From a virus: a stretch of DNA of 64,000 bases. The translations under genes and the position numbers were made by a program. Positions 8,708-34,163 of this stretch are shown piece by piece. The notes below the pieces were generated by a model. That model made no database searches, was not told where the DNA came from, and worked only from the letters and a program-made list of their open reading frames with translations. The stretch lies in the IMG/VR virus record IMGVR_UViG_3300022902_000006; one strand, given 5' to 3'. Each line of letters begins with the position of its first letter. Position 1 is the stretch's first letter.

Positions 8708-8888
8708 TGGTACCTTCTCCTCAAACTTCCGTGGTTAGTTCTCCCGACGAAAAAGAAATCGTATGTGTGTACAGGTTGATTATCATGCCCGCAGAATCCT
8801 CCCAGTCGGGAGAAGCATGGGTGACCCTGGGGCACATTCTTATACCAAGACTCGCGCTTTATTTAGACTTTCGTCTATACTACCCAGC

Positions 8889-20453: not shown

Positions 20454-20522
20454 CTTCGGTTTCGCCCGGTAGAGACAGCCCGTGGCGCACTCACACTGGG
20501 CTCATCAGTATGGGGTAGCGCT

Positions 20523-20768
20523 ATGGCTTTCGATTTCACAGACGACATCTTCAAACTCGCCGAAGTCCTGATTGAGGACCAGCTCGCCTCTCGCGCTGAG
20601 CAACCCCAAGCACAAGGGCAAGAACCAGCCGACCTGGGTGTCCCCACTCAGGGCCGATCCGTCCTCAATTTACTGGGTAAAACGACCGCCACCACGACCG
20701 AACCCGCCCCGAAGATTCTGCACGTGGACTCGGGCAAGCGACAAGTGTCCACGCCGACGAACGAATGA
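20523..20768 (+). CDS. hypothetical small protein
   Basis: FKLAE motif; overlaps next start. Confidence 0.6.
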   Translation: MAFDFTDDIFKLAEVLIEDQLASRAEQPQAQGQEPADLGVPTQGRSVLNLLGKTTATTTEPAPKILHVDSGKRQVSTPTNE

Positions 20769-21364
20769 TCCTCCGCGACCTCACACAGGCCAAGGGGCTG
20801 AGCGAGCTACTCGCCGCCACGGGAGGAACGGACAGCTTCTTCAATTACCCAGAGCGTATTGATGGTGTACGCAACGTCGCCCAACAAGCGATAGCCAGCT
20901 CTCCTGCCATGGCAAATACGCAGGTGCGCATCATGCCAAACATCGCCAATGCGTACTACGACTACGAGAACAACGAAATCCTGCTCGGCCTCGTTAACCC
21001 CGACGCACTCGCGCACGAACTGGGGCACGCGGAGAACCTAAAGCAGAAGGGGTTGTACACCAAGATATTGCGTGTGGCGCAAGGTGTCGCTAAAATCAAC
21101 AATATTGCAGCGGTACCTGTGATGTTGGGACTGAGAACCATGGTCAAAGACGAAGATACCCGAAACGACATACTCAGCGCACTGTCAGCCGTGTCATCCG
21201 CTGTCGCCGCTCCCCTGTTGTTGGAGGAGGCGTCAGCCAGCTACCAAGCACTACACAACGCACCTGATAAACTCCAAGCCCTGAAGACATTAGCACCTGC
21301 CTTCCTGGCGCACGCAGGTATGAGCCTGGCTCCAGTTGGTATCTACCAAGCGGGGAAAATCTGA
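20765..21364 (+). CDS. zincin metallopeptidase-like membrane protein
   Basis: LAHELGHA (HExxH) and downstream LLEEASASYQAL third-ligand pattern with hydrophobic helices. Confidence 0.65.
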   Translation: MILRDLTQAKGLSELLAATGGTDSFFNYPERIDGVRNVAQQAIASSPAMANTQVRIMPNIANAYYDYENNEILLGLVNPDALAHELGHAENLKQKGLYTKILRVAQGVAKINNIAAVPVMLGLRTMVKDEDTRNDILSALSAVSSAVAAPLLLEEASASYQALHNAPDKLQALKTLAPAFLAHAGMSLAPVGIYQAGKI

Positions 21365-23970
21365 TGGAACGAACTGCACAAATGTCCCCACGGACCCAAG
21401 CCTTCATCGACGGACTTCCTTCAGGTGACGAAGCGGAGAAGCTCTTCGAAGAGGGGTTCAACCAGCTCGCCTACAACGTGATGATCAGCAAGTTCCCTGA
21501 CCTCACACAAAGCATCGTCACCTTCAAGGTTCTGGAGACAGACCTCGATGCAGGCGCCGCCGTTGGGTCCTTCGTCGTGCAGTACGGCCAGGAGAATCTG
21601 TACATCCCCGTCGTGATGGCCGACAACCAGATCAAGCCACTGGACATGTTCTACCACAAGAAGCTGAACGTGTTCCTCCCGCTCACCAACGACTGGTTGG
21701 ACGAGGTACGACAACTCACCATCGACGAGATGGGTGAGGGGGTACAGCGCCCACCGACCCTGCAGCACAACGTGGACACGCGCAACACCGTCATCCCTCC
21801 CTCGCAGCATGGGAGGCACGTCTACGCAAGCGCGCAGATCACTGATGCTGATATCGACGTAGACCTACGCCGCATGATCGTGAAGTGCGCCGACGCCCCT
21901 CACAACATCCCAGCCATGCTCCCCGCAGTGCTCGCGCACGCACCCAAGGTGTACAGTGACGCCTTCGTGGGTGTCATCCAGTCCCGCACCAAGATCGCTG
22001 CACACCTCGGCGTGTTCTATGACCTGGACACGCTATACGCCAGTCTGGAGGCAGAGAAGACCGCTGCCGCTGACACGCACAGCGGAGGTGCACTGAACGT
22101 AGTGTCGCGTACCGACGGCGCCGACCGCTTCAAGGACGTGTTTGGCAAGAACGCTCCCGCTGCATTTCAAGGAGCGCTCGCCAAGGGCTACGCCGCCAAG
22201 GACACACGCACCAACCTGAACAGCGCGGTGCAGATCCAAGAACCTCAACACCTGGTCACCCCCGAGGAGTCCGGCTTCTACCGTGTGTTCACCACGGATG
22301 GCACCGCGATCCCCGCCTTCGTGCTGCACAACCCCCGGAGTGTCACGAAGAGCTGGTCCCGGAGCCCCACCTCCCGCCCCAGCAAAATCCACCCCAGCAA
22401 AAACTACATCGTGGTTCTCAACGGGGGTCGCTGGCTGGACACCGACACCCTGGTGGGTGAGCGTCTGGTGAACGCGGAAGACCTGCGTGGCCTCGACGTC
22501 TTCCACAAGCTGACCACTGAGAAGGGTGGCGACACGCCTGGTGTAGACAAGCGTGGTTTCTTCGTTCTCAAAACCGGAACGGGGTTCATTGGCACCGGCG
22601 TGTTTGGTGTGCGGCGCTCCACCACCTCGAAACAGATCAAGCGGCTGGTCTGTGATGACCACCAAAGCACCACCCTCATCATCGACCCCAAGGTGACCAA
22701 GGGTACGCTGCACCGCCCTGACAGCGCAGCCCTGATGTACATCCCAGCCATGGCACGCTTCATCAAGCTGCAGGACAAAGCAGCCGACTCCTGGGAGCAC
22801 CGTGAGAAGGGTGACCGACTCTCCCTGCTCTCCACCAAGGAAGATGTGATGCGGTGGTTCCAGGGCAACATGAGTACCCTGGGTGCCAGCTCCATTTCCG
22901 TGAAGGACGCATCTGCCGGACAGTTCTCTTTCAACGGTTCCATGGGTGTGGGTCCCGCGCCCTCCGCGATGAAGCACGCAGCGCTCACGTACCACATCCC
23001 GTTCCCCGTGGCTGAAGCTCTCGTGAAGACTGCTGCAGAAGTGGGCCGCGCTGTCTGCTGGGTCATGCCGCGTGCCGCACTGCAGAAGTTGGCACAGGGT
23101 CCCATGATGGACCCAGCGATGGCGGGTGGTGCAGGTGGAGCACCCCCGATGGACCCGGCGATGGCAGGCGGCGGCGCAGGTGGAGCACCCCCGATGGACC
23201 CGGCCATGATGGGCGGCATGATGCCTCCCCCAGGACCACCAGCTCCTCCCGTGACTCCCTCCCCGCTGGACATCGCGGTGGGTGAATCGCAGGCGCAGAT
23301 CAACCAGCAGAACGCTGACCTGCAACAGCAGCAAATGGCCCTGATGGATAAGGCCCAGACCATCCAGATGATCCAGATGCGCGCCCAGGAAATCGCTGGC
23401 GGTGGTGCTGAAGCCGTACAGGCCGGTGCGCCCCCGATGCCTCCACCCGGACAGCCCCTTCCTCCTGGCCCCGAAGCAGGTGGCCCCGCAGGTATGGCTC
23501 CCCCGATGGGCGGCGCTCCCCCGATGGGCGGCGCTCCCCCGATGGGCGGCGGCATGGACCCCAGCATGGGCGGCGCTCCCCCACAGGGCGGGGGCAGTGG
23601 TGGTGCTTTCATGCGCACCGAAGCACCAACTTCCATGGAGGTGCAGCAGCAGGTCAACCCCCAGTTCCTGGAACAGGCAGCAGCACTTCAAGACTCTGGG
23701 ACGTTCGATGCTGCCACCCTGGCGAGTATGGCGCGTAACCCCAGCTTCCGTGAGCTGGTCATCGACTACGTTCCGACGCTGGAGCGCGCGCTGGACAACC
23801 TGGGGCGATCTCTGCTCACCATGTGGATGCAGGAGAGTGAGCTGAAGCAGCAGCTCGGTGACGAAGACTACAGCGAACTGGAAGACAACGTCCGCTCTGT
23901 GTTCGAAGGGCTGGGCAAACTGATCCTCCAAATGAACCGCAACGCAACGGTGGTGGACCCACAAGTGTAA
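21364..23970 (+). CDS. large putative head-core/internal protein with Gly-Pro-Met repeats
   Basis: 868 aa; EKTA, VKTA, QKLA sites; GGAPPM repeats. Confidence 0.7.
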   Translation: MERTAQMSPRTQAFIDGLPSGDEAEKLFEEGFNQLAYNVMISKFPDLTQSIVTFKVLETDLDAGAAVGSFVVQYGQENLYIPVVMADNQIKPLDMFYHKKLNVFLPLTNDWLDEVRQLTIDEMGEGVQRPPTLQHNVDTRNTVIPPSQHGRHVYASAQITDADIDVDLRRMIVKCADAPHNIPAMLPAVLAHAPKVYSDAFVGVIQSRTKIAAHLGVFYDLDTLYASLEAEKTAAADTHSGGALNVVSRTDGADRFKDVFGKNAPAAFQGALAKGYAAKDTRTNLNSAVQIQEPQHLVTPEESGFYRVFTTDGTAIPAFVLHNPRSVTKSWSRSPTSRPSKIHPSKNYIVVLNGGRWLDTDTLVGERLVNAEDLRGLDVFHKLTTEKGGDTPGVDKRGFFVLKTGTGFIGTGVFGVRRSTTSKQIKRLVCDDHQSTTLIIDPKVTKGTLHRPDSAALMYIPAMARFIKLQDKAADSWEHREKGDRLSLLSTKEDVMRWFQGNMSTLGASSISVKDASAGQFSFNGSMGVGPAPSAMKHAALTYHIPFPVAEALVKTAAEVGRAVCWVMPRAALQKLAQGPMMDPAMAGGAGGAPPMDPAMAGGGAGGAPPMDPAMMGGMMPPPGPPAPPVTPSPLDIAVGESQAQINQQNADLQQQQMALMDKAQTIQMIQMRAQEIAGGGAEAVQAGAPPMPPPGQPLPPGPEAGGPAGMAPPMGGAPPMGGAPPMGGGMDPSMGGAPPQGGGSGGAFMRTEAPTSMEVQQQVNPQFLEQAAALQDSGTFDAATLASMARNPSFRELVIDYVPTLERALDNLGRSLLTMWMQESELKQQLGDEDYSELEDNVRSVFEGLGKLILQMNRNATVVDPQV

Positions 23971-24695
23971 TGGACGTATTCGACCCCCGAAACCTGGACC
24001 CGCACCACCGCATCAACGACGCGGTGCGGTACGCAGAGTCTCCCGACGAGGACATCCCCAATGACCTCGACAACCAGACGCTTGCGCTCATCTACGGTTT
24101 ACGCGGTAAACCACCCACGGTTGATCTGTACCACGCACTGCGTAAATACCAGAACCCCTTCTCCAGAAACGTCCTGACAGGATTCCTACTCGCGGAAGCG
24201 AAGGAAGAACTGATCACCAAAACCACGGGCATGGCTGCAGGGGTGCTCACTGCCTACGTCACCTACATCTTTGATAACTCCATTTTCTCCGACAAGATGG
24301 ACCGCTTCAGCTATGCACACGCGGTACGCAACTTCGTATCTGCGGAACACGCTGCATTCCTGGAGGCGGCTGTAACCCACGGCCCAGAGTACCTCGTATG
24401 GATGCTCAATGGAGACCCCAGCCACACCCCCAAGGACATCATGGCCTCCGTCATGGTAGACGCGCTGTATCGTGGTCGCGCACACCGTAACGCGGCCATC
24501 ACGTCACCCGCTGCAAAGGAAGCTCGCGCCTGGTTGTCCCTGGCGGGGTCTACCGCGACCAACGCGCATAGGCTAGACCCGAGTGGTGACGCAGACGACG
24601 CCCTGCGCGACCTTAAATTAGCGCTGTCCTACGAGGACGAAACCACCAACGAAGAAACCCCCGGGGCACCTGCGCCCGGTGATATACTGCATTAG
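23970..24695 (+). CDS. hypothetical protein
   Basis: Translationally coupled (TAATG). Confidence 0.7.
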   Translation: MDVFDPRNLDPHHRINDAVRYAESPDEDIPNDLDNQTLALIYGLRGKPPTVDLYHALRKYQNPFSRNVLTGFLLAEAKEELITKTTGMAAGVLTAYVTYIFDNSIFSDKMDRFSYAHAVRNFVSAEHAAFLEAAVTHGPEYLVWMLNGDPSHTPKDIMASVMVDALYRGRAHRNAAITSPAAKEARAWLSLAGSTATNAHRLDPSGDADDALRDLKLALSYEDETTNEETPGAPAPGDILH

Positions 24696-24704
24696 GAGCG
24701 CACC

Positions 24705-25526
24705 ATGCTGATGGACGAAGTAAGACTGGAGAAATACGCCGCTGAAGTAATCCAGGGCTACAAGTCCGCGAACGTGCCGTTGACGGACGGCGTCGTCAAG
24801 GTAGCGGAGGCGCGCTCGCTGAACGAGGAACAGGTACGTCGCCTGGTCGAGCGCGTGAACAACGATGTCTTTCAGCACCACTTCAAACAAGCAGAGGAAG
24901 CGAAAAGCGAAGACCGGAACGTGACCTTCGAACCCGCGAACCCCGACAGCGTACTCACCCGGCTCATCAACTCCGCCAAGGACGCCATCAACCCCACTCC
25001 CGAAGACTCGGCGGCGTCTGACCCTATGGACCTCATTGGAGACCTCCCCAATGGTTCTGACGCAGCGGGCCTGGGTGAACCAGAAAAGACTGCCTCCGCG
25101 CCAGAAGAGGAGCCCCTCCCATCCAAAGCAATCGTCATCACGCGACTGCGGAAAGCAGCCGGGGAGATGCGCATCGCTGAGACACAGGCCCGGTCCACCC
25201 TCACCGACGCCATGCAGAAGCTCGCGCGCCACTTCACCTTCCTGGACAACAAAGAGAAGTTTGCTGGCTTCGAGCGTGATGCGGTTTACCACCGTGGCAA
25301 CGACGCCGCGCCGTACCTCGCCCTCACTCGCCGTGCTCTGCGTATGCCCCGCATGACCTACGACGCCACCGCACTCCACAAGGTGGCACGTGTGGTCGAC
25401 ACCAACACCACTGAGATGCGGCTGTTGGATGCCTTCATCGCGGCTGACCAAGAAGTGGCGCGGCTGCACGCAGGCGTGGAGAAGATGGCAGCATACGAGA
25501 AGCAAGCAGGGACGCTGACCAGGTGA
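24705..25526 (+). CDS. putative head-core protein, KxA-rich
   Basis: 12 of 15 lysines are in K-x-A. Confidence 0.7.
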   Translation: MLMDEVRLEKYAAEVIQGYKSANVPLTDGVVKVAEARSLNEEQVRRLVERVNNDVFQHHFKQAEEAKSEDRNVTFEPANPDSVLTRLINSAKDAINPTPEDSAASDPMDLIGDLPNGSDAAGLGEPEKTASAPEEEPLPSKAIVITRLRKAAGEMRIAETQARSTLTDAMQKLARHFTFLDNKEKFAGFERDAVYHRGNDAAPYLALTRRALRMPRMTYDATALHKVARVVDTNTTEMRLLDAFIAADQEVARLHAGVEKMAAYEKQAGTLTR

Positions 25527-26884
25527 GTTCACCAGGCGAAAGGCCACTCTGGGGGGCTATCCCAGGAATCGGTGATGCGCTCCAGAACTGGGTGCAGACA
25601 GGGAACATCCGTAAATCTGAGGGGTTCCTCAGCCCTATCACCGACCCCAGTCATGTACCCATACCAACCCTGGACGCCCAACAAAAAGGATGGCGTGATA
25701 CCATCCTTCAAGACCTGCTCCGCGCACAGACCACACCCCCGGGAGAACGCGTCATGACCTCCTCATTCGTAAAGAAGCGAGCCTCCCTCCAGGATGACAC
25801 GGAGAAGCGTGCCGCATCCACCGCCCGGCTCGTACGGCAATTGATGAAGACAGTACCCGATGCCCCACGCATGCCGGGTATGTTGTCCCGTGTCTTCAGT
25901 GGGCGAGCCCGTGCCGAAGCACGGCAAGTTAGCACCCTGCATGATGACGTCATTCGCCGCATCGAAGCAGCAAGAATTCATGGCCCCAGCAACCCAGCCA
26001 TCGGGCAGACTGCCCCCACTGCACCTCACGAGGTAGAGCAGCTCCGCAACATGATCCAGGGTGAACTGACCAACATGCAGGTGCGTCGAGGCTTCAACGC
26101 AGGTGACGCAGCAAAGAGGATGTACCTGGATGGTGTCGAAGCAGAAGCACGCGCAGGGATTCTCCGCTCCAACCCGGGCGTTGACCCCGCAACCCTGGAC
26201 CGACTCGCGGCAAACGCCCGCTCCGCTGCGAACCAGTCCGGCAGCAAACACAAAGACCTCATCGAGCAAACCGTTGCCACCGCCCGCGATTCCGCACTAA
26301 AAAGCCCCCTCCCGGGGACTGTGCACACGCCGATCACGGATAACCCAGGGATGAAGGGTCTGCTCGGATTGGGCCTTGGTTCCACCGCCCTCATCGGTGG
26401 TACGGCTCTGACCCTGAACAACTTCGCGGACCCCACCACGCAGCGCGCCGGGTTCGGGGTTCGTTCTGGCGTCTACCCCAACATCATGGAGCGTCTGCGC
26501 TTGGATGAAGTAGCCGCTGACTCCTTCGCCAACGCCATAGGCAAGGAGATGGGGAAGAGCACCGTGGGATTGCTGGGTGACCTCGCGTCCAAAGCTGTTG
26601 CCTCTCCGGGTGACCTGGTCAAAAGCATGCAACGCAAGAACGTTTTCGACCAACTGCAAGAAGAGGATGACGTCATCGCCCGTGCAGACCCAGCACAACT
26701 GGACGAGGCTTACCACACGATGGTACGCTTCGCACCGACGCTTGCCACAGACAAGAACGCCGTCAAGACGTTCCTTCGCGAAAGCGTCCTGTACGGCACG
26801 GGACCGAACTTCGTTGCTATCAAACAACTGGCTGACGCCGAACGCGCCGTAAGCGCGCCCCCCAGCGTCGTAGTGAAAAAATAA
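25523..26884 (+). CDS. putative internal head protein with one TM segment
   Basis: KKRAS..EKRAA; GLLGLGLGSTALIGG helix. Confidence 0.65.
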   Translation: MSSPGERPLWGAIPGIGDALQNWVQTGNIRKSEGFLSPITDPSHVPIPTLDAQQKGWRDTILQDLLRAQTTPPGERVMTSSFVKKRASLQDDTEKRAASTARLVRQLMKTVPDAPRMPGMLSRVFSGRARAEARQVSTLHDDVIRRIEAARIHGPSNPAIGQTAPTAPHEVEQLRNMIQGELTNMQVRRGFNAGDAAKRMYLDGVEAEARAGILRSNPGVDPATLDRLAANARSAANQSGSKHKDLIEQTVATARDSALKSPLPGTVHTPITDNPGMKGLLGLGLGSTALIGGTALTLNNFADPTTQRAGFGVRSGVYPNIMERLRLDEVAADSFANAIGKEMGKSTVGLLGDLASKAVASPGDLVKSMQRKNVFDQLQEEDDVIARADPAQLDEAYHTMVRFAPTLATDKNAVKTFLRESVLYGTGPNFVAIKQLADAERAVSAPPSVVVKK

Positions 26885-26895
26885 AGGACCGCGCC

Positions 26896-27120
26896 ATGAC
26901 AAATCTATTCAAAGCCCTGCAACCCCGCGTTCGAAGCAACCTTCGCGGGAATATGCACAAGGTCGCCGCAGTGATGGCGCGCGGCGAGGGTATCCCCCTC
27001 ACGCGAGACGAAGTCACCATCAAGGAAGCGGCACTCATCCTCGGCATCAAGTTCCACCGGCAATACCTCGAAAAAGCGGCCATGCTCGACGGCCTGATGT
27101 GCCTCAAACGCCTGGGATAA
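26896..27120 (+). CDS. small KxA-containing protein
   Basis: HKVA, EKAA; in operon. Confidence 0.6.
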   Translation: MTNLFKALQPRVRSNLRGNMHKVAAVMARGEGIPLTRDEVTIKEAALILGIKFHRQYLEKAAMLDGLMCLKRLG

Positions 27121-27123
27121 GTC

Positions 27124-27774
27124 ATGACCCCCGAAGAAGCGTACCACCAGTTAATGGCAAAACTCTCCGCGTGCTCTGCACAGGAGAAGACTGCCTCCGT
27201 GACCCCCACGGATGCCGCCCTGCTCCAGAAAACTGCAGCGGATGTGGACGCGTTCGAGACTTTCATGAAAATCGCCTTGTCCTGGCGCGGTGTGAAGGAT
27301 GTTGCCCGTATCGCAGTACCAACTGCGATAGGTGCAGGTGGGGTCGCAACGGGTGGTGTTTACCTGGCGGGCCAGAACCTCATCAACAACGCAGACGCCA
27401 AAGCAAAGGCGCGCATTGAGGAGATGCGTGCGAAAGCATCCAAGGTTGCACTTGGTGCAACTGTAGCGGGGGCCACGCTGCTCGGCCTGCACCACTACCT
27501 CTCCAAGGACCGAGAACGGGCGCTGCTCCCTGGACGCCGCCCTGCACCACGCCGCCGCCCTGCACCACGCCGCCTCGCACCGATGATGCCCACTTACAGG
27601 GGCTACGCATCGAAGTTCGGCTCCGCATTCAACCCAGCAGAAGCCGAGACCCTCGAAAAGATAGGGACGGTTGTGTACCTGGAAGTGATGCTGCAAAAAA
27701 CAGCACACAGTGATACACTGCGTCTACTCAACGCAGAACACGGATCATCACTACTCCAAGAGCTACTGCCGTGA
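27124..27774 (+). CDS. putative internal head protein with two Gly-rich hydrophobic segments
   Basis: EKTA, QKTA twice, KIA; AIGAGGVATGG and ALGATVAGATLLG. Confidence 0.65.
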   Translation: MTPEEAYHQLMAKLSACSAQEKTASVTPTDAALLQKTAADVDAFETFMKIALSWRGVKDVARIAVPTAIGAGGVATGGVYLAGQNLINNADAKAKARIEEMRAKASKVALGATVAGATLLGLHHYLSKDRERALLPGRRPAPRRRPAPRRLAPMMPTYRGYASKFGSAFNPAEAETLEKIGTVVYLEVMLQKTAHSDTLRLLNAEHGSSLLQELLP

Positions 27775-29735
27775 CCCACGACCCCACTGACCGCCTCAAG
27801 ATAATCAACCTGGGTGAACGTTTTGAACACACAGGTGAGCCCACTGTACAGCCAGTGGTGCTCTGGGGTTTACGCGGTAAACCATGCTTCGAAAAAGTGT
27901 CCGCAGAGCTTCAGGGGAGCCCCGCCCTGGAGTACGCACGCAGCATCGAACCCGTACCCGGGAAAACGATATCCCTGATCATCGGGCTGGGTAGTTTTGA
28001 ATTTTACGGCCTGAACCGCAACGGTGATGGGTTCAACGAACAACCCTACCGCGTCGGGCAGCAGCCAACCTGCGGGTGCTGTACTGATAAGACGCGCACC
28101 GCGTGGATTGAGGAAGCTGAGTGCACCACCCACCACTACCAGAGCTACGAAAACGGTGCGGTGTTTCGCCACCACGTCAATAAGGACCGGAAGAAGGCTG
28201 TTGGGCACATCCTCAAAGCGTTCTGGAATCCCATCATGCACCGTGTCGAGGTCATCGAAGACCTGAACAACGCCAAGGCTCCCGACCTCGCAACACGGAT
28301 AGGGGACGGGGAATTCCCTGCCAAGAGCATGGGGTGCCGCATCAAGTTCGATGTCTGCACCAAGTGTGGCCATCGCGCCCCAACCAGGAAACAATACTGC
28401 GACCACCTCAAGTGGGAAATGGGACACCTGGACCAAGCGACAGGTATTCGCTACGGCGCCCTCAACCCTGCCCCCAACTTCTTCGACAGTTCCTGGGTTT
28501 TCCGCCCCGCTGACCGCACAGGTTGGATGCTCAAAAAAGTCGCAGAACACGCGTACGAACTACAGGGCTCCAGTATCCTGGGCGAGCGTGTCGAAGACCT
28601 GAATCACAAAGCTGCGGCTGCGCAGAAGCTGGCCGTCATCGACAAAATCGTACAGGGGTACCCCGCCGCTGCATTCCCCGATGACGCCGACGCACCCCTC
28701 ATCGAGCGCTTCTGCCAGACAACGCTACCCACCATGGTAGAGAACACCGAAGAACTAACCACGGAAGATATGTCGCAGTTGAACCCAACTGACGACATCG
28801 CTGACGTACTCGCGTCTTTGGCTGAAGAAGGCATCACCCTCACTACCCCTGAATTCATTCGTCTGTTCGTATCACGCATGGCACCAGGTGTTGAAGTTCC
28901 TCCCGCCATCATGCCATACGCAGTTATCCTACAGTCGGAGTTGTTCGACCTTCTACGGCAACACCCCTCTCTGGTTGAAGAGGTGGTTACTCCTCTGACC
29001 AAGGAAAAACCACAACGCATCAAAATCCCAGAACCCATTCTGGAGAAGCGCTCATTCATCGGTGAATATCTACAACGCCGCCTGGCACCCACCATGCTGC
29101 AAGGCAACGCCGCTCCTACCACCGACCTCCTGCACGTACTCCCTTCACAGGGTCAAGACGGCTTCAAAACCACGCGAGGCGCTGCACAAGGAACACAGGA
29201 TGCCATCGCAGAAGCGAAGCTCAAGCAGGGTGTAGTCGCGGGCCTCCTGAGCAGCGTTGGCCTGGGCGTAGCTGGTCTCGTAGCCAAGAAAGCCCCTGGT
29301 GCACAAAAGTGGCTCGCTCTGGCCCCACTCGCAGGTGGGCTGGGCCTCGGGGGATACTACGGGGCAGAGGCCCTGCGCCCTGTGAAAATGAGGCGCACTA
29401 CAGAAGGTGGTCTGATCCCCGCACGAACCCCCATGAAAGAGTATCCACGCGCCGATGTTGAAGAGAGCGCACTCATGGAAGCAACGAAACGAAGTGGTTT
29501 GAGCCACCGCGTAAAGTCTGGGTCTGTCATTGCGCACTTGCGCAAGTACAGCGCAGCACAGCACCCCATGGCGCTGTTTGTTACAAAGCACGCCAGTCAC
29601 GGCGCCCAGTGCTCACACCTGTCTCTCGCAGCCATCGCACACGCACTCGAAAAGCGCGCATCTGCGGGCATATTTGAAGAGCCAATTGACCTAGACAAAG
29701 TAGCCGATTTGGTCGGATGCCTCATATGGGCGTAA
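27771..29735 (+). CDS. prohead (maturation) protease, HK97/assemblin-like fold, with KxA-rich C-terminal extension
   Basis: NRNGDGF, FRHHVNKD (His), SMGC (Ser nucleophile) followed by CTKCG..CDH, NPAPNFFDSSWVFRPAD; located upstream of scaffold/capsid genes. Confidence 0.75.
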   Translation: MTHDPTDRLKIINLGERFEHTGEPTVQPVVLWGLRGKPCFEKVSAELQGSPALEYARSIEPVPGKTISLIIGLGSFEFYGLNRNGDGFNEQPYRVGQQPTCGCCTDKTRTAWIEEAECTTHHYQSYENGAVFRHHVNKDRKKAVGHILKAFWNPIMHRVEVIEDLNNAKAPDLATRIGDGEFPAKSMGCRIKFDVCTKCGHRAPTRKQYCDHLKWEMGHLDQATGIRYGALNPAPNFFDSSWVFRPADRTGWMLKKVAEHAYELQGSSILGERVEDLNHKAAAAQKLAVIDKIVQGYPAAAFPDDADAPLIERFCQTTLPTMVENTEELTTEDMSQLNPTDDIADVLASLAEEGITLTTPEFIRLFVSRMAPGVEVPPAIMPYAVILQSELFDLLRQHPSLVEEVVTPLTKEKPQRIKIPEPILEKRSFIGEYLQRRLAPTMLQGNAAPTTDLLHVLPSQGQDGFKTTRGAAQGTQDAIAEAKLKQGVVAGLLSSVGLGVAGLVAKKAPGAQKWLALAPLAGGLGLGGYYGAEALRPVKMRRTTEGGLIPARTPMKEYPRADVEESALMEATKRSGLSHRVKSGSVIAHLRKYSAAQHPMALFVTKHASHGAQCSHLSLAAIAHALEKRASAGIFEEPIDLDKVADLVGCLIWA

Positions 29736-29741
29736 TCTGAC

Positions 29742-29770
29742 TTGTTTTTAGAAAACCTTCGACCTATGAT
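29742..29770 (+). promoter_or_regulatory. sigma70-like promoter TTGTTT-N17-TATGAT
   Basis: GACC before the -10 box, as at 14033 and 18982. Confidence 0.55.
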
Positions 29771-29808
29771 TGAGAAGAAATTCGCCGACACCCAGTGAGG
29801 CCAACGAC

Positions 29809-30429
29809 ATGGAACTCAAAGACATCCTGAACCGCCTGGACAAGACCACGCAAGCCAACGAAGGTGGCGTGAAAACTGCCGGTGCCCAGCCCACCACCCC
29901 CATCGCTCCCGACGCATTGCGCGATGCGGTGCGCAACGCCTCCGGTGACGGTGAGACCAAAGTGGCCTCTGCACCAGAAGAGGACACCAGCGCACAGCTC
30001 CTCAAGATGGCGTCCGACCTGGCCAGCGCAGAAGACCAAGCGCTCACCAAGCGGGCCTCCGTGCTCGGCGCCGCCATGTGTGATGGCTTCATGACCCGCT
30101 TCGCCTCCTACGAGGAGGCCGCAGGCGCCGTCGCCCCGCAGGCGGAAAAGGTCGCCGCCGCGCAGGAGTACCACGGCGACATCACCGTGGACATGATCAA
30201 GCAGGCCGCAGCGAGCCCGGACTTCACCAAGTTCGCGGAGGACAACCCGCAGCTCGTGAAGGAAGCCTTTGACCTGGGCTACCAGCAGACCCTGGGTGCG
30301 ATGGAGAAGCAAGCCGCCGCCGAGTACGAGCAGGGCTACAACGAGACCATGGCCACCGTGCACAAGATCGCCGCCGAGTGCTACATCCAGGGTGAGACCA
30401 AGATCGCCCAGATTCTGGCCGCAGGTTAG
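29809..30429 (+). CDS. putative scaffold/core protein, KxA-rich
   Basis: 11 of 13 lysines in K-x-A; repeated [FY]xxG..[TA].. helix before KxA; strong GC3 bias. Confidence 0.7.
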   Translation: MELKDILNRLDKTTQANEGGVKTAGAQPTTPIAPDALRDAVRNASGDGETKVASAPEEDTSAQLLKMASDLASAEDQALTKRASVLGAAMCDGFMTRFASYEEAAGAVAPQAEKVAAAQEYHGDITVDMIKQAAASPDFTKFAEDNPQLVKEAFDLGYQQTLGAMEKQAAAEYEQGYNETMATVHKIAAECYIQGETKIAQILAAG

Positions 30430-30440
30430 CCCCGACGGGC

Positions 30441-31058
30441 ATGCGCTACGACGCCGCCACATTCGCGCTGTACGACGAGGTCTTCGCTGAAACGCTGGGC
30501 TTCGTGAAACGTGCTGGTCTGTTCGGCACCCTGGGAACGAAGTTCAAGGACTTCGTAACCGGGAGTCGGCGTGCTGAACAAGCGACTGCCACCCTGAATG
30601 CCACCGAAGCAGCGCGCGCCAGAGCGGTCCAAGAAGCAGCGGCGTTACGCGCCCGCATGCCCTCGGGCAACTTCAGCACTTTCGAAGACGCGGCACACAG
30701 TGCCCAGCAAGCGGAGATGCGTGCAGGTGCGGCAGAGGCTGCGGCTATCGAACGGCAACGTCTCGCTGAGGAAGCTGCTACTGTTGCACAACAAGGTGCA
30801 CGCCGTAACAAGCGCCTCGCCATCGGCGGGGGAGTAGTAGGCGCGACCGGGCTAACCGCTGCTGGAGCTGGCATCCCCATGGCATACGACAAGGGAGTTG
30901 ACCAGGGGCAAGAGCACCAGACGCGCACGCGAAACCTTGCCTTCGGGTCGGGCATCGTAGCCGGGACCACCGCACCAAACATCATCCGTGGCCTGGGTGG
31001 CATCGCCAGGTCTGCTGGACGCACGGGATTGTTCCCCGAGTTCCAAGGGCTCCGCTGA
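30441..31058 (+). CDS. glycine-zipper/coiled-coil putative head protein
   Basis: FVKRAG; Ala-rich coil; IGGGVVGATGLTAAGAG. Confidence 0.65.
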   Translation: MRYDAATFALYDEVFAETLGFVKRAGLFGTLGTKFKDFVTGSRRAEQATATLNATEAARARAVQEAAALRARMPSGNFSTFEDAAHSAQQAEMRAGAAEAAAIERQRLAEEAATVAQQGARRNKRLAIGGGVVGATGLTAAGAGIPMAYDKGVDQGQEHQTRTRNLAFGSGIVAGTTAPNIIRGLGGIARSAGRTGLFPEFQGLR

Positions 31059-31059
31059 A

Positions 31060-31293
31060 ATGAAACAAGTACCCAGCATAGCGCAGATCGCTGCTGACAT
31101 TCTGCGAGAGGTGGACGCCGAGCGGCAGACCAAGGTCGCTGCGGCCCAGCTTGCTGGTCCCACGGCCTCTCCTGTCCCGCACTCAGAGGTTGCGCGGGGC
31201 CTGAACAAGATCGCACACCGTCTCCGCGAGCTGCCAACAGAGCCCGTCGTCACCATGACTGACATCCACAACTTCATGGGGAGGGTGGGATGA
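31060..31293 (+). CDS. small KxA protein
   Basis: MKQVPSIAQ start; TKVA, NKIA. Confidence 0.6.
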   Translation: MKQVPSIAQIAADILREVDAERQTKVAAAQLAGPTASPVPHSEVARGLNKIAHRLRELPTEPVVTMTDIHNFMGRVG

Positions 31294-31445
31294 TCGACAA
31301 GACCGCCGAGGGGCTGCGCAAACTCGCAGCAAAACTGCGCGAAGAGGCTGACCTCCGTGACGCCGCGCACACCGTAAAGTGTGCGCAGGTAATCCGGGGA
31401 GCTACCTCGCTGTACCAACTCAAAAAGAAGCTGGGAGTGTCCTGA
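31290..31445 (+). CDS. 51-aa KxA protein (not in the ORF track)
   Basis: MIDKTAEGLRKLAAKLREE...VKCA; overlaps neighbours at both ends (ATGA, TGATG). Confidence 0.6.
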   Translation: MIDKTAEGLRKLAAKLREEADLRDAAHTVKCAQVIRGATSLYQLKKKLGVS

Positions 31446-31816
31446 TGACCAACTCACAACTACTCCGCGACACAGCCGACGTGCTGGAGAAGGTCGCCGA
31501 GCACATGGATCAACAAGCATCCGTGGTGGACTCCGAACGCGCCGCCGCACATGCCGCGCAGGTCTCCGAGCTGTCCACCAAGGTTGGGTCCAAGGTTGAC
31601 GTCGACGACGCCACCCTGGGCCGCATCGCCGAAGACCCCGCCCTGGTGGAGATCGTCACCAAGCTGGCATCAGACAGCGACGCACCCCCCGACGACATGG
31701 GTGAGGGCCACGACCTGGATGAGGGCAACACCGCCACAAGGACCAAGACGGGTTCTGCACAGGGAGAAATGGCTCCCGAGGACGCCCGGCTCTTGGCCTG
31801 GGTCAACGGCGACTGA
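31445..31816 (+). CDS. putative scaffolding protein
   Basis: Acidic helical protein with EKVA, TKLA, directly upstream of decoration/capsid genes. Confidence 0.55.
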   Translation: MTNSQLLRDTADVLEKVAEHMDQQASVVDSERAAAHAAQVSELSTKVGSKVDVDDATLGRIAEDPALVEIVTKLASDSDAPPDDMGEGHDLDEGNTATRTKTGSAQGEMAPEDARLLAWVNGD

Positions 31817-31876
31817 AAAAGATCGACGACGAGGAACACCACCTCTTAGCAAGCTACACGCAAAAGGAGCATTGAA

Positions 31877-32332
31877 ATGTCCGTACTCGCATCCAAGTTC
31901 GACATCACCAGAGGGTACCCCAACGGCGCCCTGGAAGAGGACTTCCCGATCAAGAAGACCGGCACCACCTACGAGACCATTCCCGCTGGTCACCTCGTGG
32001 TCCCGGAGGCCGACGCCGCTGGCGCAGCCGTCATCAGCGCGGGCACCACGCCCGACACGTCCCAGACCGACAACGCCCCAGTGTGGCTGGTGGTCGAGGG
32101 CAACGACGACTTCTCCGGGGACTACGTCAAGAAGGCGCACTGCCTGCGCCTGGGCTCGGGCCTCATCTGGGAGACCGATCAGTTCGCCGCCGGAACCTAC
32201 GCCGTGAGCACCCCCGTGTCGTTCAGCGCGGGCAAGATCAAGGTCAAGGGGTCCAACGAGCAGATCATCGGCTACGTGGTGGCGAACGAAGTCACCGCGC
32301 GTGGCGTCCTGCGCATCGCCGACACCGCGTAA
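31877..32332 (+). CDS. capsid decoration/stabiliser protein (putative)
   Basis: AAGGAG RBS; small beta-rich protein immediately before the capsid gene; strong GC3 bias. Confidence 0.6.
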   Translation: MSVLASKFDITRGYPNGALEEDFPIKKTGTTYETIPAGHLVVPEADAAGAAVISAGTTPDTSQTDNAPVWLVVEGNDDFSGDYVKKAHCLRLGSGLIWETDQFAAGTYAVSTPVSFSAGKIKVKGSNEQIIGYVVANEVTARGVLRIADTA

Positions 32333-32409
32333 GGAGTGGTGATTCCTCGTCGGTTGTACTAAGCTAAACACGAAACGCACCACGTAAACGGTTCTGGAGG
32401 ACCAAACAA

Positions 32410-33324
32410 ATGGAACAGTACGCCACGCAAGAAAGCGAAGTTGAAGCGCGGCTCGTCAACTCGAACTTCGTCAAGAAGATCGAGGAGGGGCGCACCAAAG
32501 AGGCCCAAGACGAGGGCTCCGCATTCATCCGCATGAAGGTCCGTCAGGAATCCTTCGCCCGCGAGATCATCCACCCCATCCTTCTGGAAGACGACCAGAT
32601 CGACCGGGACGAGAACTCCGACCAGCCCAAGAAGATCGTGGAGAAGGAGCCAGACAGCGTGGCCACCTTCGTGACCTTCCAGGGCACCGGGCGGCGTACC
32701 TGGTTCCGTGGCCTCCGCTTTGCGGTGAAGTTCGGGAAGACCGAATCCCAGCGCTTCACCAAGAACAAGTGGGAGCTGATGACGTACCAGAACGACATCC
32801 GCAAGATCCTCTCAGACAACTCGGTCAAGGACATGGCCGACCAGGAGGACACCCACTTCATCGGCACCATCGATGACCTGATCGCGCTGAACCTCGCGAC
32901 GCAGATGACCACGGCCACCGGCTTCAACTCCGCCAGCTTCAAGAAGGCGTTCCAGGCCATGGTGCGTCGTCGCCAGCCCATCGGCAAGATGCTGATGACC
33001 AAGGAGCTGTACTACGAGGCCCTGGACCTGCCCGCCACCTCCGTCGGCAACACGGTCGCCTCGCGGCACTACGACGAGGGCATCGAGGACGAGGACGTCC
33101 TGTGGGGTCTGCCGGTGGTGTCCACCATGAAGAGCGACGTCCTGAACCCCAAGAAGGCGTACGTCTTCGCCCCCGAGGAGTTCCTGGGCTGCTTCTTCCT
33201 GCTGCAGGACGCGACCCTGTACATCAAGCACGAGGCCGACATCATCGAGTTCTGGAGCTACGCGGCTCCGGGCATCGGCATCGGGAACACGCTGGCTTTC
33301 CAGGCCATCACCTTCCCGGCGTAA
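32410..33324 (+). CDS. major capsid protein (HK97-type)
   Basis: GGAGG RBS, extreme codon bias, position after protease/scaffold/decoration, downstream stem-loop. Confidence 0.8.
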   Translation: MEQYATQESEVEARLVNSNFVKKIEEGRTKEAQDEGSAFIRMKVRQESFAREIIHPILLEDDQIDRDENSDQPKKIVEKEPDSVATFVTFQGTGRRTWFRGLRFAVKFGKTESQRFTKNKWELMTYQNDIRKILSDNSVKDMADQEDTHFIGTIDDLIALNLATQMTTATGFNSASFKKAFQAMVRRRQPIGKMLMTKELYYEALDLPATSVGNTVASRHYDEGIEDEDVLWGLPVVSTMKSDVLNPKKAYVFAPEEFLGCFFLLQDATLYIKHEADIIEFWSYAAPGIGIGNTLAFQAITFPA

Positions 33325-33340
33325 GAACGGCTGCATCACT

Positions 33341-33378
33341 CCCAGGCCCCCGACTAATGAAACGGGGAGGGGCCTGGG
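33341..33378 (+). terminator. stem-loop after capsid gene (terminator or mRNA stabiliser)
   Basis: CCCAGGCCCC...GGGGCCTGGG 10-bp stem; weak U-tract. Confidence 0.5.
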
Positions 33379-33405
33379 CTGCTTGACTGCTACAAGGAGT
33401 ACGAC

Positions 33406-33807
33406 ATGACGAAAGTCCGTCTGACATGGTGTGGGCAGGGCGCTCTGGATCTTTCCCATCTCACCACCGACGAGGGGCTTCCCCTCATGTTCGCCGCCCC
33501 AGGGTGTACGGCAGTTGTGAGTACGGACACCACCAAGCACCCGCTTCTCTCCTCGTTCCTCAAGCCACTGGGGGATCTTCACAGCGTGGACGCCGAGTCC
33601 CCAGAAGAACCCCTCGTAGCCGCTCCATCCCCGGAACCACCTCCTCCAGAACCAGTACCGGAGAAGGAGTCAACACCCGCACCCGCCGTCGTATCTGAGC
33701 CGGAACCCGAGCCCGAGCCCGAGCCCGCCCCGGAACCCGACAAGCCTAAGCCGGGCCGAGGTCGGGGACGTGAGAGGGCAGGCGGTGAGAAAAAGAACGA
33801 CAAGTAG
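33406..33807 (+). CDS. hypothetical protein with Pro/Glu-rich C-terminus
   Basis: AAGGAG RBS; (EP)n repeats. Confidence 0.7.
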   Translation: MTKVRLTWCGQGALDLSHLTTDEGLPLMFAAPGCTAVVSTDTTKHPLLSSFLKPLGDLHSVDAESPEEPLVAAPSPEPPPPEPVPEKESTPAPAVVSEPEPEPEPEPAPEPDKPKPGRGRGRERAGGEKKNDK

Positions 33808-33847
33808 AGGGGCATCACGCACCTCAACCTCAACACCCGATTCACCC

Positions 33848-33883
33848 AAAGGCGCGTGCTGCTCTGCGGTGCGCGCTTTTTTT
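33848..33883 (+). terminator. intrinsic terminator
   Basis: GCGCG..CGCGC stem followed by T7. Confidence 0.65.
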
Positions 33884-33908
33884 ACATGACATTTACGCGG
33901 TAAATCAC

Positions 33909-34163
33909 ATGACAGAAAAAACAGATGAGACAGTAGATGTAACGGAAACCCACGACCTCAATATCGCAGCCTACATCAAGGAAGTGAAGGAGGTACCTAC
34001 AATGGGGCACGTAGTTCGGGACCGGAAAGTCTATATCCAGTTCGGACTATCTGCTGAGGTGTTTGCGGCACACCAGAACGACTACTGGAACTCGGTGCAC
34101 GCGAGGTGTGACAGCACACGGAAGAACTTCCTGCAGCTAACGAAGCGCGCCAAACATAGGTAA
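33909..34163 (+). CDS. small protein resembling DUF5659-type phage proteins
   Basis: THDLNIAAYI...KVYIQF pattern; preceded by the TTTAC-N3-GTAAA palindrome. Confidence 0.5.
   Translation: MTEKTDETVDVTETHDLNIAAYIKEVKEVPTMGHVVRDRKVYIQFGLSAEVFAAHQNDYWNSVHARCDSTRKNFLQLTKRAKHR

Follow-up and report, generated by a model that had tools for sequence, protein, structure and literature searches.

Why are so many lysines in the head proteins of this phage followed, one residue on, by alanine? The window analyzed here is a stretch of 64,000 nt from IMG/VR record IMGVR_UViG_3300022902_000006, a phage of about 180 kb. A first-pass annotation had noticed the pattern and attributed it to a head protease encoded at 27771. 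Our analysis indicates that K-x-A is probably what the head-maturation protease encoded by the phage itself recognizes in its substrates (27771..29735, plus strand, 654 aa).

Motif counts were compared with expectation gene by gene by shuffling residues inside each protein in 2,000 rounds, with composition kept. Two plus-strand genes stand out. In the scaffold-like head protein of 24705..25526 (273 aa), whose predicted fate is cleavage to short peptides, 12 of 15 lysines lie in K-x-A, with 2.2 expected; in the acidic, Ala-rich scaffold-like protein of 29809..30429 (206 aa), 11 of 13 do, with 2.6 expected. None of the 2,000 shuffles came as high in either case, and the recount reproduced the first-pass figures for both genes exactly. 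The motif is less dense in other plus-strand genes of the module: 19047..20453, encoding 468 aa (11 of 25 lysines, 4.3 expected, P = 0.0015); 21364..23970, encoding a large protein of 868 aa (9 of 36, 4.0 expected, P = 0.015); the protease itself (8 of 38, 4.1 expected, P = 0.045); and two small proteins within 26896..27774, at 26896..27120 (3 of 6, P = 0.015) and 27124..27774 (5 of 13, P = 0.05). In two further small plus-strand proteins within 31060..31445, at 31060..31293 (2 of 3, P = 0.053) and 31290..31445 (3 of 7, P = 0.07), the motif is present in numbers that are small and short of significance. Enrichment was not significant in gene 31445 (2 of 5, P = 0.16) and was absent from gene 25523 (3 of 21 against 2.5 expected, P = 0.48). 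The earlier list of genes punctuated by the motif, which had included all of these, holds for 19047, 21364, and 26896 (P ≤ 0.015) and more narrowly for the protease and 27124, and it loses 25523 and 31445.

The excess is specific to the head module and to a single spacing. Pooled over 17 head-module proteins, K-x-A occurs 77 times where 31.3 would be expected (z = 9.2, none of 200 shuffles as high) and ranks top among 1,600 gapped residue pairs (20 × 20 residues, gaps of 0 to 3). The first-pass annotation had asked for a comparison with non-head proteins; the 48 other genes in the window show no enrichment (79 against 70.6, z = 1.1). It had also written the motif as K-x-[AS], the serine half of which finds no statistical echo in the 17 proteins: K-x-S (9 against 12.0) and K-x-G (13 against 17.7) are not enriched, and Ser takes the place of Ala only at a few conserved protease sites (K286-x-[AS] and K426-R-S). 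In the head genes, AAR-NNN-GC occurs 77 times in frame but only 11 and 9 times in the two remaining reading phases, which places the signal at the protein level.

Such a motif might arise as a by-product of Ala-rich amphipathic scaffold helices, or of composition, with no sequence-specific reader. The richest proteins are Ala-rich (Ala fraction, 0.15 to 0.20), and the products of 24705 and 29809 resemble helical scaffolds, judged by composition. Helices, however, predict signals at i + 3 and i + 4 and with Arg and Glu, and in the 17 proteins K-xx-A (38 against 31.5), K-xxx-A (26 against 30.7), R-x-A (38 against 33.0), and E-x-A (47 against 40.7) were flat, while K-A was depleted (21 against 31.6). 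A-x-K was likewise flat (29 against 31.7). Moreover, the composition-keeping shuffles never reached the observed counts, K-x-A is found as well in linkers that the protease model renders with low confidence, and K and A are conserved by column while their neighbors drift. The gap controls and the column conservation largely refute this by-product reading, which we regard as very improbable. Taken together as sequence statistics, these data support K-x-A as a linear motif that is under selection and limited to the proteins of the head module.

We then consider the relatives of the phage. K-x-A is also the top pair in Salmonella phage Arash (46 against 21.4) and Vibrio phage D181 (51 against 22.4), and across IMG/VR relatives with GC contents of 0.33 to 0.71 it heads the ranking in 50 of 57 loci and is among the top two in 54, some of these loci being near-duplicates. 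Its rank over that range makes the signal clade-wide and independent of base composition. In phage G and mycobacteriophage Cali, which carry more distant SMGC proteases, the excess is weak (z = 2.3 and 2.5) and K-x-A is not the top pair, which counts against recognition by the protease. Among orthologues of 29809 (n = 73), 747 of 937 lysines (80%) lie in K-x-A, 3.8 times expectation, and among those of 24705 (n = 53), 507 of 1,029 do, 3.85 times expectation; the factors are 2.4 for 19047 (n = 40) and 2.05 for 21364 (n = 57). The K and A columns of the 29809 family are conserved at 0.68 versus 0.28 in other columns, with a variable middle residue and drifting flanks; K is seldom swapped for R, and A seldom for S or G. 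Between 29809 and Arash gp223, K-x-A is kept although overall similarity is gone (E = 0.05), and the 24705 product is homologous to Arash gp220 (E = 1e-12). In the 19047 product, K101 and K122 are conserved at 87% and 91%, versus a mean column identity of 0.24, and at K232-T-A234 of the 21364 product, K232 is conserved at 87% and A234 at 93%.

A strict Lys, seldom Arg, is also what a Lys-modifying enzyme would need, and HK97-type capsids can cross-link via Lys; K-x-A could on these grounds mark Lys for covalent modification or cross-linking (methylation, acylation, or an isopeptide bond) rather than cutting. Against this, PHROGs and Pfam searches of the head module detected no transferase or ligase family, and the capsid protein, which is what cross-linking usually involves, belongs to a family with no overall K-x-A enrichment (0.98 times expectation). 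It would also entail modifying about 80% of the lysines in a normally discarded protein, for which we know of no precedent, and we find this scarcely credible.

Recognition by a head-maturation protease requires such an enzyme, and the 27771..29735 product is the candidate. It matches phrog_18299, "head maturation protease," in part (E = 5.8e-8, 33.3 bits, residues 117–215 on 104–209 of 257) and, more strongly, phrog_2774, of unknown function (E = 9.9e-11). Pfam assigned it no family at E ≤ 0.01; PF03420, PF20034, and PF04586 were not matched at E ≤ 5 across 49 homologues; and no sequence relatives were found in the PDB. The nearest Pfam-named Atlas clusters, Peptidase_S77 (score, 0.92) and Peptidase_S80 (0.91), are leads, not tests. 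Homologues number 590 at E ≤ 1e-3, with 2,817 clusters at 50% identity and E ≤ 1e-10. The catalytic domain comprises about residues 50–250 (27918..28520; plus strand, as are all sites in this gene). There, H134 and H135 (28170..28175), S186-M-G-C189 (28326..28337), the SMGC that had been reported at this locus, and a Cys-x2-Cys...Cys-x-His cluster from C196 to H212 (28356..28406) do not vary across the 49 aligned homologues, His preceding Ser by about 50 residues. Ser186 and His134/135 are likely the catalytic residues. Inteins interrupt 12 homologues, between SMG and C189 (8), between DV and C196 (3), or after HH (1).

An AlphaFold2 model of the protein had a pLDDT of 68.5 (65 to 91 in 10-residue blocks over residues 51–240). 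VIA-align against 48,161 chains placed T4 gp21 (5jbl_A) first, a moderate match (Z = 8.2, rmsd 3.2, 128 of 165 residues aligned), with MCE-domain barrels next at Z = 7.8 to 6.9, the nearest less than 1 below gp21, and the VZV, HCMV, and KSHV proteases also listed (Z = 5.8, 4.4, and 3.8). Foldseek gave no match at E ≤ 1e-3 and listed 5jbl at E = 0.16. Profile comparison of the family with T4 gp21 by hhalign (probability 1.8%, E = 0.027, 31% identity over 51 columns) paired S186 with T4 S140 and N137-x-D139 with T4 N90-x-D92; H85 and S140 are the catalytic residues of gp21. The gene lies in the head module, 2.7 kb upstream of an HK97-fold capsid gene, and the gene order is the same in Arash, D181, phage G, and Cali. 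The phrog_18299 match, the 5jbl score, and the S186/S140 alignment make a prohead serine protease akin to T4 gp21 the best reading of this protein. Going by the model, the best explanation of its N-terminal domain is a predicted serine protease of the T4-gp21/assemblin type, followed by a long C-terminal extension bearing K-x-A/S.

The positions of the motif can be compared with those at which processing is expected. K256-V-A258 (28536..28544), all three residues of which are invariant (n = 49), lies in the linker just past the catalytic domain and is a candidate for the site at which the protease would release itself by self-cleavage. At this offset after the PAD motif, 93 of 101 representatives have K-x-A, versus 24% of random 20-aa windows; the site falls in a low-confidence segment of the model (residues 246–275). 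It is followed by K280-A-A282 (28608..28616; K280 and A282 invariant in 49 sequences) and K286-L-A288 (28626..28634; K286 invariant in 49 sequences). C-terminal copies (29046..29705) comprise K426-R-S428 (29046..29054), where E-K-R-[ST] is nearly invariant in columns 465–469 of alignment A1, K606-H-A608 (29586..29594), K628-R-A630 (29652..29660), and K643-V-A645 (29697..29705). The six strings singled out in the first-pass annotation were all located: KKVA (K256), QKLA (K286), EKRS (K426), TKHAS (K606), EKRAS (K628), and DKVA (K643). On the N-terminal flank of the catalytic domain, K-x-A is present in the 48 other aligned homologues; the window's own protease reads EKVSAE and lacks it, which again counts against our explanation.

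The major capsid protein (32410..33324, plus strand) was identified as an HK97 fold from an AlphaFold2 model (pLDDT 84.9), with 349 Foldseek matches in the PDB at E ≤ 1e-3 (HK97, SaPI1, and encapsulins), and it is 39% identical to Arash gp226. Near its N terminus, K30-E-A32 (32497..32505, plus strand) is a candidate maturation site, with K30 conserved at 99% and A32 at 100% in 71 orthologues, and it comes after a helix break in the model. This N-terminal stretch is conserved in general, and the conservation of K-E-A could have a structural cause. Overall, sequence conservation supports a placement of K-x-A where processing is expected: at the capsid N terminus, at the flanks of the catalytic domain, and at a fixed spot just past it.

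As a control, the same scan was run on T4 proteins. On gp67, gp68, gp21, and gp22 it ranked I-x-E first and L-x-E third, and with gp23 added, L-x-E first and I-x-E second. Because the scan recovers the known I/L-x-E sites of T4, cut sites yield the same kind of signal as K-x-A. This bears on the proposal that K-x-A serves for binding or targeting, as a repeated contact with the inside of the capsid, with the portal, or with DNA, or that it is cut by a host protease or by the small HExxH protein of 20765..21364. The latter, with a zincin-like AHELGHA, is encoded in the same module, and the repeated short motifs of scaffolds can serve as interaction sites. Yet known cut sites give the same statistical picture in T4, and invariant sites at the edges of a serine protease domain and at a capsid N terminus form a pattern of self-release and maturation. 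BLAST homologues of the HExxH protein occur in only 10 of the fetched loci, in contrast to a near-universal K-x-A enrichment, and the HExxH protein has no K-x-A among its own 9 lysines. Binding or cutting by another enzyme is therefore unlikely, and recognition by the 27771 protease remains the preferred reading.

Known systems offer several parallels. T4 gp21 (MEROPS S77/PF03420), the best structural match, has an alignable His...Ser block, and the two phages share the head-module order of protease, scaffold, and capsid gene and a scaffold saturated with a two-residue motif of gap 1. Self-cleavage and core degradation, documented for T4, would be shared as well: gp21 cleaves itself, and gp22, gp67, and gp68 are degraded to small peptides, as described in PMC9958956. 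Substrates of gp21 comprise gp22, gp67, gp68, gp23, gp24, and internal proteins. The motif differs, however, being Leu/Ile-x-Glu in T4 and Lys-x-Ala here, and the 27771 protein belongs to a sequence-distinct family with no Pfam S77 match even at E = 5; at 654 aa, it has a C-terminal extension of about 400 aa and a Cys/His cluster inserted beside the Ser. The first-pass comparison with x-x-E processing was apt: the T4, phiKZ, 201phi2-1, and SPN3US proteases all cut after Glu, and phiKZ gp175 and SPN3US gp245 (Peptidase_S80) recognize (S/A/G)-x-Glu, with many head and ejection proteins processed and their own C terminus cut (PMC5694885). In that group, as in the window phage and its relatives, genes for a virion-associated multisubunit RNA polymerase lie close to those of the head, but its characterized members cut after Glu, which has no role in the motif here, and the sole tie of the 27771 protein to S80 is its Atlas score.

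Herpesvirus assemblin (UL26/MEROPS S21) likewise joins an N-terminal protease to a C-terminal part that resembles a scaffold, and its release site comes directly after the catalytic domain, although its structural scores against the 27771 model are low. Its consensus is (V/L/I)-x-A, cut before S. In the pseudorabies virus (PrV) assemblin sites, YLQA-T and VQA-S, the cut falls behind an Ala that a small residue follows (PMC4498786). The herpesvirus P3 is hydrophobic, whereas the window phage would have Lys there. A Lys is the key residue elsewhere: the HK97 gp4/gp5 maturation cut falls between K103 and S104, and the capsid of Listeria phage A511 is cut after Lys23. In those phages a small residue directly follows Lys, whereas K-A is depleted in the window phage and Ala lies one residue further.

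Inside the assembled prohead, we propose, the protease would free itself at K-x-A sites on either side of its catalytic domain and chop the scaffold-like 24705 and 29809 products into peptides of about 10 to 30 residues able to exit the shell. It would also trim about 30 residues off the capsid protein N terminus and may process the head proteins of 19047, 21364, 26896, and 27124. Such a scheme would mirror T4 gp21 acting on gp22, gp67, gp68, and gp23, with Lys-x-Ala replacing Leu/Ile-x-Glu. As for the register, residues around the motif point two ways. At position +3 from K, A and S are enriched (1.9-fold and 2.6-fold) and K-x-A-[AS] occurs 31 times in the head-module proteins against 6.2 expected, which, with the depletion of K-A, favors a cut after the Ala, before Ala or Ser; we lean modestly toward this bond, which would share its P3-x-P1 geometry with T4 and phiKZ and its small P1′ with assemblin. 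At position −2, L, F, and M are enriched 2.3-fold, matching the HK97 and A511 context, and [LFM]-x-K-x-A (28 against 4.3 expected) fits K as P1 equally well; a cut directly after Lys, in keeping with a hydrophobic-x-Lys pattern, is a serious though less probable option, and a bond elsewhere is quite unlikely. The Arash virion proteome was trypsin-digested and gives coverage but no termini, and with 116 proteins in the sample, ribonucleotide reductases among them, it does not decide the matter.

More tentatively, a clade-wide gp21-like protease with a Zn cluster may have left the Glu-P1 rule that all characterized myophage prohead proteases follow and cut after Ala in Lys-x-Ala, before Ala or Ser, an Ala-small bond as in assemblin. 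The clade is very large and mostly uncultured, and consists of phages of about 180 kb with virion RNA polymerase genes. If this is true, sequence alone could reveal how the virion proteins of thousands of metagenomic phages are processed.

The window belongs to a phage genome that is 180,179 bp long with a GC content of 58%, and the head genes of the window form a co-directional module that runs from about 19047 to 33324. The genes for multisubunit RNA polymerase beta/beta' (8763..13472 and 17149..18942, both +) lie directly upstream of this module, and its last gene encodes the major capsid protein (32410..33324, +). The AF2 model of the capsid protein (pLDDT 84.9) had an HK97 fold, with 349 PDB matches at E ≤ 1e-3 in Foldseek, including HK97, SaPI1, and encapsulins. 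Megablast of window positions 24000..34000 against phage records gave no close DNA match. The nearest named relatives were the “orphan” Salmonella phage Arash and Vibrio phages D181, D148, and D69, which have gene order in common with the window and show 35–38% identity across the protease domain and 39% for the capsid protein. Homologous RNA polymerase subunits are reported among the most abundant proteins of the Arash virion preparation (PMC10585845), an abundance that suggests a packaged RNA polymerase. After the capsid gene, 33406..33807 (+) encodes a small protein with a Pro/Glu tract (PEPEPEPEP), a basic tail, and no family match.

The first-pass annotation had proposed that Lys-x-Ala (K-x-A), or K-x-S, is the cut signal of the SMGC-type protease encoded at 27771. 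Its counts for the two scaffold-like head proteins were exact, with K-x-A at 12 of 15 lysines in 24705..25526 (2.2 expected) and at 11 of 13 in 29809..30429 (2.6 expected); 0 of 2000 within-protein shuffles reached the observed count in either case. The wider list of head genes said to be punctuated by the motif held in part. Enrichment was present in the products of 19047 (11 of 25 lysines, p 0.0015) and 21364 (9 of 36, p 0.015), borderline in those of 26896, 27124, 31060, and 31290 and in the protease itself, and absent from 31445 and from 25523 (3 of 21 lysines vs 2.5 expected). K-x-S found no statistical support as part of the motif, with 9 observed vs 12.0 expected across 17 head proteins. 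Once composition was taken into account, the signal proved specific to the head, as the 48 other window genes were flat (79 K-x-A vs 70.6 expected).

When every one of 1600 residue pairs (gaps 0–3) was scored without bias over the 17 head proteins, K-x-A came out on top, with 77 observed vs 31 expected (z 9.2–9.4). Second place went to P-x-M (24 vs 9.2 expected), which owes its rank to low-complexity Pro/Met/Gly/Ala repeats (APPMDPAMAGG and similar) at approximately residues 580–720 of the 21364..23970 product. Within the head proteins, K-xx-A, K-xxx-A, R-x-A, E-x-A, A-x-K, K-x-S, and K-x-G were all flat, and K-A was depleted. A DNA-level origin was ruled out, as AAR-NNN-GC occurred 77 times in frame vs 11 and 9 times out of frame. 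Outside the head module, a gene approximately 18 kb upstream of the window (whole-genome contig G000:C1:36711-37799, +; L088:6712-7800) encodes a 362-aa protein with 10 of 18 lysines in K-x-A (2.2 expected) and no PHROG family. The gene sits between the large terminase gene and an HNH/reverse-transcriptase cluster, and its product is predicted from its sequence to be an extra protease substrate. The automatic gene call over the whole genome chose an antisense ORF at 24705..25526, so the resulting list lacks the 24705 gene.

The same pair scan was run on T4 proteins. For gp67, gp68, gp21, and gp22, the top rank went to I-x-E and the third to L-x-E; when gp23 was included, L-x-E took first place and I-x-E second. 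Both are experimentally known gp21 sites, and their recovery indicates that a scaffold-saturating motif is how a prohead-protease site looks in this statistic. The K-x-A signal here was stronger than that of T4's motif. In kind, the arrangement read from our sequence resembles that of T4, a prohead protease plus a scaffold full of its own sites. In T4, gp22, gp67, and gp68 are reported to be degraded to small peptides, 65 residues are taken off gp23, and the protease cleaves itself (PMC9958956). The proteases of T4, phiKZ, 201phi2-1, and SPN3US are described as cutting after Glu (PMC5694885).

The head genes annotated in Arash (46 vs 21.4 expected) and D181 (51 vs 22.4 expected) likewise had K-x-A as their top pair. 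With a protease profile, 141 relatives were pulled from IMG/VR and 80 loci were kept; 24 of 81 IMG/VR loci were shorter than 15 kb and were set aside, leaving 57 of at least 15 kb. K-x-A was the top pair in 50 of these 57 loci and among the top two in 54; the set includes several near-duplicates, so the loci are not independent trials. Their GC content runs from 0.33 to 0.71, a span that also opposes a DNA-level origin. Locus L078, considered as a natural motif variant because L-x-K came top there and K-x-A 21st, was not a clean case: K-x-A still accounts for 10 of the 33 lysines in the scaffold-like ORF of this locus. For the distant SMGC proteases of phages G and Cali, the head-module K-x-A excess was weak (z 2.3 and 2.5), and the rule therefore cannot yet be extended to either.

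Counts were also made by orthologue family, leaving out hits whose alignment spanned under half the query. K-x-A held 747 of 937 lysines in the 29809 family (3.8× expectation), 507 of 1029 in the 24705 family (3.85×), 422 of 1137 in the 19047 family (2.4×), and 596 of 2747 in the 21364 family (2.05×); the capsid protein family (129 of 1618, 0.98×) and the 31877 family (27 of 252, 1.02×) stood at expectation. In the fast-evolving 29809 family, conservation of the K and A columns was 0.68 vs 0.28 for the remaining columns, the position between them was free to vary, and K→R and A→S/G changes were rare. Similarity between the 29809 protein and its positional counterpart, Arash gp223, was insignificant (E 0.05), and the motif saturates both. 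The conservation of K and A around a free position and the persistence of the motif beyond overall similarity point to direct selection on a short linear motif.

Individual sites were fixed as well. In the capsid protein, K30 is kept in 99% and A32 in 100% of 71 orthologues, and the model places them just past the break between the N-terminal helix (5–25) and the next helix (29–47). Other conserved head-protein sites are K101 and K122 of the 19047 protein and K232 of the 21364 protein. In the protease, a K-(T/E)-A-(S/C) site, or K-(T/E/V/I)-A in its looser form, lies upstream of the catalytic domain in 48 of 48 other aligned homologues; at this position, the window protease reads EKVSAE (residues 42–45; 27894..27905, +), which suggests that its upstream site was either lost or shifted to a K-x-S form. 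Downstream of the catalytic domain, K256-V-A258 (within the low-confidence model segment 246–275), K280-x-A282, and K286 are invariant among aligned homologues. Among 101 representatives at the 50% identity level, after those without both anchor motifs in order were left out, K-x-A occurs within 20 residues past the PAD motif in 97 and at an identical offset in 93, vs 24% for random windows. The motif could instead be a binding motif or a site read by a different enzyme, a helical by-product, or a mark for lysine modification; each of these would account less well than self-cleavage for the constant sites that border the protease domain.

The protease matched phrog_18299, “head maturation protease” (E 5.8e-8), with no Pfam family match, no PDB match by sequence at E < 1, and no Foldseek match for its model at E ≤ 1e-3. 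In an all-against-representatives structural search, the AF2 model (pLDDT 68.5) best matched T4 gp21 (Z 8.2, rmsd 3.2, 128 residues), with MCE barrels at most 1 Z unit away and three herpesvirus proteases further down. The hhalign probability against T4 gp21 was low (1.8%), and the aligned block set N137-x-D139 to S186 on T4 N90-x-D92 to S140 at 31% identity. H134, H135, S186, M187, G188, C189, and the cluster C196-x2-C199...C210-x-H212 (28356..28406, +), which directly follows the SMGC serine motif, show no or almost no variation. Bacillus phage G gp19 has the Cys/His cluster as well, as does mycobacteriophage Cali gp93 in its N-terminal domain. To our knowledge, a zinc site would be unusual for a prohead protease. 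In phage G gp19 (L084) and Cali gp93 (L085), K-x-A-(A/S) strings flank the catalytic domain on both sides, those of gp19 being VKTAAK, EKVASK, and LKIASE.

One search returned 590 family proteins at E ≤ 1e-3, and another returned 2817 clusters at 50% identity and E ≤ 1e-10. Among 120 homologues listed, 12 carry inteins (P0016, P0027, P0033, P0038, P0043, P0047, P0053, P0059, and P0061–P0064), inserted between SMG and C189 (8), between DV and C196 (3), or after HH (1). Inteins tend toward functionally critical sites. Those found here, of 364–391 aa, account for the ~1000-aa length of their hosts, and LAGLIDADG/Hint Pfam domains were found on some; further intein-sized members occur among the 50%-identity cluster representatives. 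Separately, the head-module gene 20765..21364 (+) encodes a 199-aa product whose AHELGHA (HExxH) motif is zincin-like, with no family match, K-x-A at 0 of 9 lysines, and BLAST homologues in only 10 of the fetched loci; judged by this motif, the product may be another protease, of the metallo type.

A weak extended logo surrounds K-x-A, with L/F/M at −2 (2.3×), E/V/T at −1, T/V at +1, A/S at +3 (1.9× and 2.6×), and A/E/D at +4. We lean toward K-x-A↓(A/S) as the scissile bond because P3 and P1 are the positions that known assemblin-fold enzymes recognize, with a small residue accepted at P1′, because +3 is rich in A/S and the position immediately following Lys is not a small residue, and because herpesvirus assemblin is reported to cut YLQA-T and VQA-S. 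A cut directly after Lys is also plausible, as a hydrophobic residue is enriched two positions upstream of it. Natural protein termini were uninformative: of 1105 ORF products, 3 have K-x-A at the C-terminus where the internal rate predicts 14, and a terminal K occurs in 54 vs 60 expected. The Arash paper gives no termini in Table 2 (coverage only) or in its annotation-table supplement.

In the mechanism we propose, the protease would be co-assembled into the prohead and then activated, and its catalytic domain of ~210 residues would be released by cuts at K-x-A on either side. The 24705 and 29809 proteins would be reduced to short peptides, the capsid protein would lose ~30 residues, and the 19047 and 21364 proteins would be trimmed at K101 and K122 and at K232, respectively. 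A prohead protease with a site-rich scaffold is a well-known kind of system. Our literature search, which covered the K-x-A motif and phage maturation protease sites, found no description of the motif, of a protease family bearing this Zn cluster, or of a clade this large. No protease is mentioned in the Arash paper, and a 2025 phage G paper applies the name head maturation protease to gp19 on the basis of annotation alone. Tryptic virion proteomics cuts at identical lysines and could hide any such processing; cultured members exist (Arash, D181, D148, and D69), making the prediction directly testable. Should the protease indeed cut at K-x-A, a rule of two residues would be enough to forecast the fate of each head protein, trimming or destruction, and the positions of the cuts, across a 2817-cluster protease family without any Pfam model. 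It would also add a further specificity for assemblin-fold capsid proteases, beside Glu (T4 and phiKZ) and Ala (herpesviruses), and would thereby bear on how these proteases diverged.
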